A stretch of 64,000 nt of DNA from positions 103,476 through 167,475 of the IMG/VR virus record IMGVR_UViG_3300032093_000012; one strand, 5' to 3'. The position numbers and the translations under genes are program-made. The stretch comes from a virus. Every line of letters starts with the position of its first letter. Position 1 is the first letter of the stretch. Shown piece after piece: positions 7,295-11,989 of the stretch. The notes under the pieces were generated by a model that was not told where the DNA came from, made no database searches, and saw only the letters and a program-made list of their open reading frames with translations.

Positions 7295-7299
7295 AATAA

Positions 7300-7377
7300 C
7301 CCGTGTTAGTGTAGCGATCAAACATACCCGCCTTTCAAGCGTGGAGATCATGGGTTTGAATCCCATACGCGGGACCA
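7300..7377 (+). tRNA. tRNA-Glu(UUC)
   Basis: loop CTTTCAA, bulged anticodon stem, CCA. Confidence 0.85.
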
Positions 7378-9441: not shown

Positions 9442-10875
9442 ATGACTACTTTTGTAAATGCTGTTGTTAATCAGTCTGCTCGTACTGAGAACGGGATGAA
9501 GGCTCGTCAGAATACTGCTAACGCACTTACTGACTTGTTTTTCAAGATCGGTGCTATGCGTGGCCAAAACGTAATCCCTGCTTGGACTGCAGCTCGCGTG
9601 CAAGATCCTGACTTAGCAGCTCGTGTTGCTCTGTGGGCACGTGACGTTCGTGGTGGGGCTGGCGAACGTAAGATCTTCCGCGATATTCTTGTTGATCTCG
9701 CTAACACTGACGCTTCTCAAGCAGCTGCTTTGGCACATAAGGTTCCTGAGCTTGGTCGCTGGGATGACCTACTTGTTCTCGTTGGTACTCCAATTGAAGA
9801 AGTAGCATTCTTTCGGATCAAGTGTGCCCTTGAAGATGAAAACGGTCTCTGCGCAAAGTGGATGCCTCGTCAGGGTGAAGTAGCTGCAAAGCTGCGTAAC
9901 TATCTTGGCTGGACTCCAAAGTTCTACCGTAAGCGTCTGGTTGAGCTGACTAAGGTTGTCGAGACTCAGATGTGTGCTAAGGACTGGGATAACATCAACT
10001 TCAGTCATGTTCCTTCTGTTGCATCTGCACGTTACAAGAAGGCTTTCGCTCGTCATACTGAAAAGTATAAGGAGTGGGCAGCTGCGCTTGTTTCTAAGGA
10101 TCCAGAAGTGCGCGAATCTGTAAAGGTTAACGCTGGTGCAGTGTATCCTTATGATGTATTGAAGGGTTTGTATAACGGTTATCATACTAACTATGATAAG
10201 GCAAACTACGATCACATCGTAGCGCAGTGGGAAGCACTTCCTAACTATATTGGCGATGCAAGCATCTTGCCATTGGTTGACGTTTCTGGATCTATGACTT
10301 CATCTGCGGGTGGTTATAGCTCTAAGTCAACTACTACATGTCTTGACGTAGCTGTGTCTCTTGGACTGTATCTTGCAGACAAGAACAAGGGTAAGTTCAA
10401 GGATACGTTCTTGACTTTCTCTAGCAAGCCTCAGCTGATGCACCTCAAGGGTAATATCCTTGATAAGCACCATCAGATGTGCACTTCTAAGTGGGAGATG
10501 AATACAAATCTCCACGTTGCTATCCAGAAGATCCTCGATGTAGCAATCGAGGGTTCTGTGCCTCAGGAAGAGATGCCTTCAATGCTTCTTATCCTGTCTG
10601 ATATGCAGTTTGATATGTGTACTAATTATGACGATTCTGCTATGCAGATGATCGCTCGTAAGTATGCTGATGCTGGTTATGTCGTGCCTAATATCGTGTT
10701 CTGGAACTTGAATGCACATGACAATGTGCCTGCTCGTTTCAACGATAAGGGTGTTGCGCTCGTGTCTGGTTTCTCACCAGCGATCGTCAAGGGTATCCTT
10801 GCCGCTGATCTTGATGACTTCACACCAGAAGCCATCATGCTAAAGACGATCATGAGTGATCGCTATGACTACTAA
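9442..10875 (+). CDS. DUF2828-family protein with C-terminal vWA domain (TROVE/Ro60-like architecture)
   Basis: recalled family motifs RDVRGGAGER, GRWDDL, AKWMPR, YRK, VPS; MIDAS DVSGS and SDMQFD; AAGGAG RBS. Confidence 0.85.
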   Translation: MTTFVNAVVNQSARTENGMKARQNTANALTDLFFKIGAMRGQNVIPAWTAARVQDPDLAARVALWARDVRGGAGERKIFRDILVDLANTDASQAAALAHKVPELGRWDDLLVLVGTPIEEVAFFRIKCALEDENGLCAKWMPRQGEVAAKLRNYLGWTPKFYRKRLVELTKVVETQMCAKDWDNINFSHVPSVASARYKKAFARHTEKYKEWAAALVSKDPEVRESVKVNAGAVYPYDVLKGLYNGYHTNYDKANYDHIVAQWEALPNYIGDASILPLVDVSGSMTSSAGGYSSKSTTTCLDVAVSLGLYLADKNKGKFKDTFLTFSSKPQLMHLKGNILDKHHQMCTSKWEMNTNLHVAIQKILDVAIEGSVPQEEMPSMLLILSDMQFDMCTNYDDSAMQMIARKYADAGYVVPNIVFWNLNAHDNVPARFNDKGVALVSGFSPAIVKGILAADLDDFTPEAIMLKTIMSDRYDY

Positions 10876-10999
10876 ATGATGAGAGTTACGGCTCTTATTG
10901 TATGATCTAAGTACTAATTCTACGATCGGGTCGCGCGTAAGTTTCGTAGTACAGTCGCAATCTTAGACAACATTCGAGGTGACACGTGAGCCTCAGCAT

Positions 11000-11091: not shown

Positions 11092-11168
11092 GCCGTTGGG
11101 TCGGTAGTGGCTATCGAGACGGTTTCATACACCGTTTAAAGTTGTTTCGAGTACAACCCTCGGCACCA
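11092..11168 (+). tRNA. tRNA-CAU (elongator Met or Ile2), mismatched acceptor stem
   Basis: loop TTCATAC, T-arm GTTGT-TTCGAGT-ACAAC, CCA. Confidence 0.7.
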
Positions 11169-11174
11169 GTTTCT

Positions 11175-11332
11175 TGACGCATAGCTCAGAGGTAGAGCAA
11201 TAAAAGCAAAAAGAGCACTGCGACCCAGCTAGTGAAGGGGCTGTCCTGATAAGACAGTAGCAGCGAGGGGCGGAACCTCGGCGGTGCACCATAAGACAGG
11301 GGTGGAAGGATCGTTACCTTCTGCGCCAACCA
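11175..11332 (+). pseudogene. interrupted tRNA (Ile-like) whose two halves flank an intact tRNA-Ile
   Basis: 5' half TGACGCA-TAGCTCAGAGGTAGAGCA; 3' half ATAAGACAG...GAAGGATCGTTACCTTC-TGCGCCA-A-CCA. Confidence 0.7.
11215..11291 (+). tRNA. tRNA-Ile(GAU), atypical T-loop
   Basis: GCACTGC/GCGGTGC acceptor, loop CTGATAA, T-loop GGCGGAA, CCA. Confidence 0.75.
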
Positions 11333-11368: not shown

Positions 11369-11989
11369 ATGGAAGATTTTTTAAACGCTGTTGAGAGCAG
11401 TCAACACTGTCAAAGAAATTGGGACTTAAGTAGAGAGATTGATCCAGAACATATCAAGATATTTGAAGAAGTAGTAAAGAATGTACCTAGTAAACAAAAC
11501 ATAGCTTATTATAAAGTACATTTTATTACTAACAGAAATATTATTGAAGAAATATATCAATGGACAATGACTGAGAGCTCTGAAGACACAGACTTTTATA
11601 ATCCTCAAGTATTAGCAAATTTGCTTGTAGCATTTGAAGCACATTGGGATACAAGCAAAGATGGAAGAGGTGAACGTATAATCGAAAGAACTATAAAAAC
11701 TATAGATTATAATGGATACACTATCAACGTTGATAGACATCAATCAATAGGAATAGCTTCAGGTGTTCTAGCTTTGATAGCAAACTATCTTGGTTATAAG
11801 ACTGGTTTTTGCAGATGTTTTAAACAAGATCCAGTTAATAACATAATTAAATCTGAAAATAATATTGATATGCTATTAGGAATAGGATATCCTAAAAATG
11901 ATAAACCACATACTGTACATCATATGTTAAGTATGGTAAATGTAGAACCAATTCCTAAAACTGAGATACCTATAATTAAGCTACCTTAG
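11369..11989 (+). CDS. nitroreductase-family protein
   Basis: CQRNW, PSKQN, LGYKTGFC and IGYP motifs. Confidence 0.75.
   Translation: MEDFLNAVESSQHCQRNWDLSREIDPEHIKIFEEVVKNVPSKQNIAYYKVHFITNRNIIEEIYQWTMTESSEDTDFYNPQVLANLLVAFEAHWDTSKDGRGERIIERTIKTIDYNGYTINVDRHQSIGIASGVLALIANYLGYKTGFCRCFKQDPVNNIIKSENNIDMLLGIGYPKNDKPHTVHHMLSMVNVEPIPKTEIPIIKLP

Follow-up and report, generated by a model that had tools for sequence, protein, structure and literature searches.

A phage tRNA-Ile(GAU) gene split by a complete non-canonical tRNA-Ile(GAU): probable nuclease-free remnant of a homing-endonuclease cassette

The stretch of DNA analysed here (the window) comprises the last 64 kb of the 167-kb IMG/VR virus record IMGVR_UViG_3300032093_000012, a metagenome-assembled virus with a large tRNA array: ARAGORN recognized 21 tRNA genes in the window and 27 in the whole genome. 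Neither ARAGORN nor the Rfam tRNA model gave a call within positions 11175-11332, where a resident tRNA-Ile(GAU) gene is split in two and a complete inner tRNA, preceded by an A-rich spacer, lies between its halves. The elements of the locus are listed below in window coordinates.

11175-11199, plus strand: 5' remnant of the resident ('outer') tRNA-Ile(GAU), TGACGCA-TA-GCTC-AGAGGTA-GAGC-A, corresponding to tRNA positions 1-26 (acceptor 5' strand, D-arm and position 26)
11200-11214, plus strand: A-rich spacer of 15 nucleotides (nt), ATAAAAGCAAAAAGA, forming the 5' leader of the inner tRNA
11215-11291, plus strand: complete inner non-canonical tRNA-Ile(GAU) of 77 nt with a cloverleaf, A73 and an encoded CCA; the replacement tRNA
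11292-11332, plus strand: 3' remnant of the resident tRNA-Ile(GAU), beginning at anticodon-loop position 36, or at 35 with A11291 included

The outer 3' remnant is made up of (A)TAAGACAG, the variable loop GGGTG, the T-arm GAAGG-ATCGTTA-CCTTC with its unusual loop, the acceptor strand TGCGCCA, A73 and CCA. A11291 is common to the CCA of the inner tRNA and to the outer 3' remnant. The insert of 91-92 bp, that is the 15-nt leader plus the 77-nt tRNA, is located in the anticodon arm of the resident gene. This layout had been described in a first-pass annotation made from the sequence alone, and the description proved exact to the base in both coordinates and sequence. The same annotation had pointed out that the beginning of the outer 3' remnant is identical to the 3' side of the inner anticodon arm; this 9-nt repeat, ATAAGACAG, is real and is found in both tRNAs because the inner and outer families have an identical 17-nt anticodon stem-loop everywhere, free-standing copies included.

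An exact-pattern scan with the outer T-arm yielded 68 viral contigs, 39 of which contain the uninterrupted outer gene in 12 distinct sequences, all with 7/7 acceptor pairs. The intact allele has the form TGGCGCATAGCTCAGAGGTAGAGCA-CTGTCCTGATAAGACAG-GGGTG-GAAGGATCGTTACCTTC-TG(C/T)GCCA-ACCA or a close variant of it. One of these copies, in contig L157, occupies the same locus: over the 1.8 kb upstream, L157 and the window are approximately 88% identical, and both have the CAU-anticodon tRNA-like gene there and the 6-nt spacer GTTTCT. Its intact allele is called as tRNA-Ile(gat) by ARAGORN, scores 57.2 bits with Rfam and is canonical in its tRNA features. The locus thus shows a presence/absence polymorphism, in which the empty site of L157 is an intact target with the same neighbours. 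The comparison with relatives, suggested in the annotation as a check, therefore recovered the uninterrupted allele, with the outer parts of the window 24/25 (5' part, L157 2716-2740) and 42/42 (3' part) identical to it; the 3' remnant is also 42/42 identical to L103 and L139. A merely accidental likeness to a tRNA is thereby excluded. The annotation's proposal that a tRNA gene had been replaced in place by a divergent allele is borne out by these intact copies. L002 carries a third, more canonical tRNA-Ile(gat) allele at the same place, and the three alleles of the window, L157 and L002 indicate rapid turnover at the locus. The spacer ATAAAAGCAAAAAGA is absent from both L157 and L002. No close copy of the outer allele was found among 50,697 GenBank phage records, and none in cellular genomes (one genome each from 185,579 species).

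Alignment with L157 shows that the outer gene of the window has lost nt 27-34/35 (CTGTCCTG, plus or minus the A after it) and gained the 91-92 bases of the insert. It also differs by a G3-to-A change resulting in an A3·C70 mismatch that is seen in 0/39 intact copies. Since nt 27-34/35 are missing, no anticodon arm can be formed; with the acceptor mismatch in addition, the outer gene is dead, a pseudogene in two pieces. These pieces have changed very little: the remnants show 1 difference in 67 nt against a flank divergence of approximately 12%, and the neutral probability of observing one difference or none is 0.002. It follows that the break is much younger than the split from L157, or that conversion or selection preserves the remnants.

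Two other unusual genes related to the outer tRNA came up in the scans. In L161 (approximately 7297-7366) an outer-type tRNA-Ile(GAU) following tRNA-Cys is truncated at the 5' end and starts inside the D-arm 3' strand, which makes it another type of relic of this allele. In L093 (9216-9305, minus strand) a 90-nt tRNA-like gene combines the anticodon arm CTGTCCTGATAAGACAG with a long variable arm and would be type-II-shaped with an Ile anticodon.

The inner tRNA folds, in the minimum-free-energy structure, into a cloverleaf with a 7-bp acceptor stem, the anticodon arm CTGTC-CTGATAA-GACAG and a 5-bp T stem. It is peculiar in having G8-A9, a D stem of 3 bp that closes a 10-nt loop, a variable loop of 6 nt and GGCGGAA as its T-loop. 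Exact-pattern scans of IMG/VR and of metagenome contigs of the Joint Genome Institute (JGI) gave 20 free-standing copies of the inner family (11 IMG/VR and 9 JGI stretches) representing 11 distinct sequences, every one of them located inside a phage tRNA array of up to 17 genes that is otherwise without a GAU tRNA-Ile. The nearest copy, in L091, is 75/77 identical in the tRNA, with flanking DNA 72-83% identical to the window. The anticodon loop CTGATAA (7 nt, with U33 and a purine at 37), A73 and CCA are invariant in 11/11 distinct members. Positions 8-49 are mostly invariant: the D-arm and the anticodon loop do not vary, nor does the anticodon stem apart from its two inner pairs, which differ in L170 only and are both compensated; in the variable loop the two middle positions vary. 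The T-loop occurs in two forms, GGCGGAA or AGCGTAA, with positions 54 and 58 changing together (G/G or A/T).

Compensatory double changes were found in 7/7 acceptor, 2/5 T-stem and 2/5 anticodon-stem pairs (11/20 pairs among the 11 sequences). Pairing was preserved in 100% of the 220 cells of the alignment, compared with 30-54% in the control in which the 3' partners were slid by 1-3 columns. A covariance model built from the inner family (R1) scored the window copy at 108 bits and ordinary tRNAs, including the outer allele, at 51 bits or less. Compared with canonical tRNAs the core of the family has G8, G14 (in one D-loop numbering) and the D-loop GCTAGTGA, with no clear G18G19 and no T-psi-C; from the reading of the alignment, the 15-48 pair is possibly swapped (C15, G48). 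RF00005 gave no match to the inner element even at E<=10 in a 96-nt search. Because the canonical core nucleotides and the RF00005 score are lacking, the element is classified here as a non-canonical tRNA-like gene. Similar features occur elsewhere in these phages, since G8-A9 long-loop D-arms are also present in tRNA-Asn genes of related arrays and GGCRGNA-type T-loops in tRNA-Thr and tRNA(CAU), so this alternative tRNA architecture is tolerated there.

No other GAU tRNA-Ile candidate was detected in the 167-kb genome. The conservation, the covariation, the genomic context, A73 and CCA together indicate that the inner element is most likely the working tRNA-Ile(GAU) of the phage, and the annotation was right to regard it as a real gene of atypical build. 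The family was absent from the 50,697 GenBank phage records and its core from the cellular genomes of the same 185,579 species; within the reach of these searches the family is phage-only.

The inner family is physically linked to a nuclease gene in other phages. In two contigs, L170 and L162, an open reading frame (ORF) of 166-168 amino acids (aa) runs with its 3' end directly into the inner-family tRNA, approximately 150 aa preceding the overlap. The order in both loci is an orphan tRNA 5' half, a TATAAATA-like motif with a ribosome-binding site, the nuclease ORF and the inner-family tRNA. The orphan half comprises the acceptor strand, the D-arm GCTCAAAGGTAGAGCA, the anticodon-stem 5' strand and TT, and ends at anticodon-loop nt 31-33. 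The ORF contains the motif ELEH...NN...NL..LCPNCH and matches the HNH endonuclease family phrog_10822 of PHROGs, with E 1.9e-27 for L170; all six aligned relatives match it as well, down to E 4.6e-38. The Pfam HNH models remained below threshold for L170 and L162 and reached E 2e-5 in the relatives, and a search of solved structures with the nuclease profile gave non-significant HNH-domain matches only (IscB and McrA, E 0.17-0.25).

A scan for relatives of this nuclease gave 16 viral loci, which were pooled with L162 and L170. The succession of an orphan 5' half, a nuclease and a complete tRNA abutting the 3' end of the ORF was found in 12 of the 14 distinct loci with tRNA context, and the old and new isoacceptors match wherever the anticodon loop or D-arm of the remnant is long enough to tell. 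The loci with this succession, and those with the full nested form, are as follows.

Ile-GAU, 5' half-nuclease-tRNA: L162, L170, L171, L172, L178, L179 and L181/182
Leu-UAG, 5' half-nuclease-tRNA: L173/174 and L175/176
Met-CAU, 5' half-nuclease-tRNA: L177
Full nested form (5' half, nuclease, tRNA and old 3' half): L173/L174 and L175/L176 (Leu-UAG) and L179 (Ile-GAU)

Each of the nested forms L173/L174 and L175/L176 was assembled independently from two samples. The left junctions of the Ile cassettes lie at anticodon-loop nt 33-36, and the right junction in the window at 35/36. An N-terminal domain with the signature GIDFDPN...WNKG adjoins tRNA-Ile(GAU) in 8/8 loci, being followed by an HNH C-terminus in four of them and by a different C-terminus in the other four; nucleases with other N-termini adjoin Leu, Met, Thr or Lys-like genes. 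This distribution fits a putative DNA-binding module specific for the Ile gene. As a separate observation, L178, L179, L181/L182 and L184 share the GIDFDPN...WNKG N-terminus of L162 and L170-172 and have the C-terminal motif GGYRENAGRS...ADFYL...LDPKN, possibly PD-(D/E)xK-like, which suggests that nuclease modules have been swapped on one DNA-binding domain. A GIY-YIG ORF (SegE-like, with a weak Pfam match) was also noted two tRNA genes downstream of the inner-family tRNA in L083 (733-1407, oriented sub-coordinates) and L086 (7509-8156), so these arrays harbour a second homing-nuclease class as well.

The split resident gene with its inserted replacement tRNA is probably best understood if the insert is the remnant of a homing-endonuclease cassette that comprised a nuclease gene and a replacement tRNA; of the origins considered for the insert, a cassette is the most likely one in view of the loci compared above. 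The intact allele of L157, the HNH-linked cargo in L170 and L162, the recurrent layout, the agreeing junctions and the youth of the remnants all speak for it. In a mixed infection the nuclease would have cut an intact tRNA-Ile gene, as DNA, within the anticodon-loop sequence or close to it, and repair of the break would have copied the cassette from the donor genome, inserting it at loop position ~35/36. The old gene would thereby have died and the new tRNA taken over, preserving the decoding of AUU and AUC, and the tRNA gene of the cassette would be uncuttable owing to its very different D-arm and T-loop. Later, the nuclease ORF and nt 27-35 of the old gene would have been lost by deletion, so that 15 A-rich bases were left and a dead half on either side of the new tRNA. 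Transcription of the array presumably gives a single precursor, from which RNase P and 3' trimming would release the inner tRNA, with the outer pieces as by-products.

Several observations weigh against this origin. The insert contains no ORF and no recognizable nuclease remnant was found in the window, while tblastn with 11 nuclease homologues against the 167-kb genome returned a trivial tRNA overlap and one weak match of ~79 aa outside the window; with no nuclease in the insert or the genome, the window can at most represent a nuclease-less derivative. Pattern scans of the IMG/VR and JGI contigs, in which records near-identical to the window may have been missing, revealed no contig with a nuclease inside the outer allele of the window, and a second copy of the nested junction gave 0 matches there (CCATAAGACAGGGGYGGAAGG; ACCATAAGACAGGGGYGGAAGGATCG; ACCA-N0-8-GACAGGGGYGGAAGGATCG; outer 5' half followed by a TAAATAG promoter). 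The spacer ATAAAAGCAAAAAGA may represent the last codons of the lost nuclease ORF, whose A/G-rich 3' end occupies the corresponding position in L162 and L170. It shows 9/15 identities to nuclease 3' ends, both stretches being ~73% A, which is no better than composition predicts. The deletion step is inferred, as a spacer of this length and A content cannot be matched to the K/R-rich ends of the nuclease ORFs, the genome has no homologue and no nuclease-bearing contig of the same allele was found. Since the 17-nt anticodon stem-loop is shared, immunity of the inner gene requires that the nuclease reads the D-arm side too, which would be plausible for one-sided recognition by an HNH enzyme. Finally, the standard tRNA models reject the inner tRNA, whose role in aminoacylation and decoding is a prediction.

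An unlikely alternative is that the nuclease gene was never part of the insert and that a break, made by a nuclease acting in trans from a co-infecting phage or arising from any other source, was patched by microhomology-mediated copying of a leader and a tRNA from another phage array. The insert is indeed exactly one array unit, i.e. an inter-tRNA spacer plus a tRNA ending in CCA, short A-rich or CA microhomologies lie beside both junctions, no nuclease remnant is recognizable and most family members are free-standing without a nuclease. However, patch repair requires two illegitimate joins and leaves unexplained the agreement in anticodon-loop position between the right junction and the junctions of the nuclease cassettes, while insertion followed by loss of the nuclease matches stages found in other contigs.

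The first-pass annotation had tentatively ascribed the replacement to pressure from an anticodon nuclease. In its wider form this alternative, which we consider improbable, holds that a tRNA-targeting nuclease of the host defence cleaves canonical phage or host tRNA-Ile and that the inner tRNA is spared owing to its non-canonical body. To our knowledge, no defence nuclease specific for tRNA-Ile has been described. The inner tRNA does depart from near-universal features (G8, unclear G18G19, GGCGGAA T-loop) and other tRNAs of these arrays are also atypical. Phage tRNAs are moreover known to counter tRNA-cleaving defences, as in the case of Septu, which cleaves tRNA-Tyr (PMC13096335), and of PARIS (PMC11464382). 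Nevertheless, the inner and outer 17-nt anticodon stem-loops are identical, which rules out that an enzyme could tell the two tRNAs apart by the anticodon arm; the insertion inside the old gene is left unexplained, and the linkage to HNH genes points to a driver acting at the DNA level. The annotation's proposal is not supported in this respect. Escape from an RNA nuclease that reads the tRNA body is possible as an added benefit compatible with the cassette origin.

It is very improbable that the nested layout itself is functional, with the outer halves serving as an acceptor/T-arm scaffold or as an anticodon-less mimic (the latter had been raised in the annotation), for instance as a processing aid or a decoy. 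In favour of a function the outer remnants are almost unmutated, as described above, and the 3' piece can form a stable T-arm hairpin (-15.1 kcal/mol). The outer acceptor, however, is predicted to pair with an ensemble probability below 1%, and forcing the pairing costs 4.1 kcal/mol. The two-piece duplex left after excision of the inner tRNA reaches only -4.4 kcal/mol and contains the A·C mismatch, and the 3' piece is predicted to favour its own extended hairpin. In addition, the 3' half is absent in L162, L170, L171, L172 and L181, and the free-standing members of the inner family need no scaffold. The idea of a mimic is thus not supported by the folding predictions.

Least probable of all is an assembly artefact joining reads of two phage strains. 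The record is metagenome-assembled and no second contig with the junction was found. However, the two tRNAs have only 17 nt in common, less than the k-mers normally used in assembly, and a false join there would have produced hybrid tRNAs and not nesting in which 9 nt are duplicated and 8 nt lost. There is no repeat at either junction, and the same topology was recovered independently in the samples of L173/L174, L175/L176 and L179. Three other candidates were considered and rejected: a tRNA intron, as the exons are not contiguous (the joined halves lack the anticodon-stem 5' strand) and no Rfam intron family matched; integrase/att integration, as an integrase is lacking and the repeat is not where such an event would put it; and a homologous crossover via the shared 17-nt anticodon arm, which would yield hybrid tRNAs instead of nesting.

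Selfish nuclease genes in phage tRNA clusters are known from T4, where SegB recognizes a 27-bp site containing the T-psi-C motif and secures ~100% inheritance of itself and of the surrounding tRNA genes (PMC2330249). The likeness lies in a selfish nuclease gene that resides among phage tRNA genes and reads tRNA-gene DNA, with loss of recipient markers in mixed infection (PMC2330249; PMC13096335). SegB, a free-standing GIY-YIG enzyme, differs in being encoded between tRNA genes, none of which it splits, and in belonging to another nuclease family; the window, for its part, contains no nuclease, just a split target and a replacement tRNA. The tRNA cluster of T5 also contains ORFs, F-TflI/II/IV, as cited in PMC2330249. 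The nearest cultured homologues of the cassette nuclease, at ~40% identity, are HNH genes of such T5-like phages. One of them, orf94 of Salmonella phage S124 (NC_048013.1), lies in a tRNA cluster, begins 12 nt after tRNA-Ala and overlaps with its 3' end the start of tRNA-Leu, as the ORFs of L162 and L170 overlap their tRNA. Unlike at those loci, no orphan tRNA half is annotated or evident upstream of orf94. A keyword search of the literature, covering few subscription journals, gave nothing on nested tRNA genes or on cassettes of a nuclease and a replacement tRNA beyond SegB and T5.

Insertions of homing elements into protein-coding genes offer a further parallel. mobE creates a split nrdA in Aeromonas phage Aeh1, and the element in the Allomyces mitochondrial atp6 brings a new 3' end. 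In these cases too the element sits inside its target, the recognition site is destroyed and the function of the gene is kept or supplied, which spares the host any harm; the window differs in that the target is a tRNA gene and that a whole divergent gene copy is supplied, with no fragment and no two-piece product. Group I introns in bacterial and phage tRNA anticodon loops use the same insertion site and often carry homing-endonuclease ORFs, whereas the exons in the window lack nt 27-34/35, the 91-nt insert has no intron core and a second gene, instead of splicing, makes good the lost function. Integrative elements using att sites likewise leave a direct repeat of part of the tRNA gene (here 9 nt) at the insert border, but the window has no integrase, its insert is 91 nt, the repeat lies inside the inserted tRNA and the resident gene is not regenerated.

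What is particular to the window is the nuclease-less state in which both dead halves are almost unmutated, and a cargo from a phage-only tRNA-Ile family whose core is nearly invariant and which standard tools overlook. If the homing origin is true, the window may represent a late, nuclease-free stage of the cassette life cycle, complementing the nuclease-bearing cassettes. The locus shows one way in which the tRNA repertoire of a phage changes, by replacement of a whole gene within the old one, probably by way of selfish nucleases and not through codon usage, and arrays that seem to be without Ile(GAU), including the near-complete set of this phage, are probably complete. Combining G8 with an atypical D-loop, a G55-type T-loop and a 15-48 pair that is possibly swapped, the inner family offers a natural experiment on what IleRS, EF-Tu, RNase P and the ribosome tolerate. 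A wider proposal, on the doubtful side, is that homing endonucleases reading tRNA genes are a major force shaping tRNA structure in phages: the inner D-arm and T-loop would then provide immunity at the DNA and not the RNA level, and the window would be the end stage of a cut-and-replace gene drive, with the nuclease gone, the old gene in two dead halves and the re-engineered tRNA fixed. If so, many of the 'missing' tRNAs of phage arrays would be hidden non-canonical replacements.

Several features neighbouring the nested genes deserve mention. Window positions 11093-11169 contain the CAT-anticodon tRNA-like gene, with the canonical T-arm GTTGT-TTCGAGT-ACAAC and ACCA and with no ARAGORN or Rfam call. 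Its acceptor mismatches 5-68 and 6-67 are kept in L002 and L157, and pair 4-69 shows a compensatory change, L002 having A-T in place of G-C. The gene probably encodes a functional, if atypical, tRNA(CAU), possibly of the Ile2 type. A non-coding block of ~100 nt, ~92% conserved between the window (10900-10999) and L002 (2463-2560), lies directly upstream of tRNA-Tyr and may be a small structured RNA of the array. In the window a gene for a 477-aa protein with DUF2828 and DUF7788 (9442-10875; phrog_850 'RNA-binding protein', E 1e-134) is situated in the middle of the tRNA array; this gene is present in L157 and absent at that place in L002, where the ~100-nt block follows tRNA-Leu without it. 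A 206-aa ORF with a weak nitroreductase-like match (11369-11989; Pfam E 0.046) lies between the Ile and His genes and overlaps the start of tRNA-His. It is found between His and Pro in L002 (3001-3615) and is absent from the L157 region, so it behaves as a movable gene of the array.

Two further observations come from the genome outside the window. An ORF of 155 aa (C1:65064-65531; L187 1065-1532) is made of NUMOD3-like repeats (H..E.K..IS.A.KG) and ends in a zinc-finger motif; it lacks a nuclease domain and may be what is left of a decayed homing endonuclease. At C1:38766-39457 (minus strand) ARAGORN called a 94-nt 'tRNA-Ile(tat)' and a permuted 'tmRNA' overlapping tRNA-Arg(tct). The tmRNA call is probably spurious; the Ile(tat) call, unusual in its length, has a homologous 92-nt counterpart in L169.

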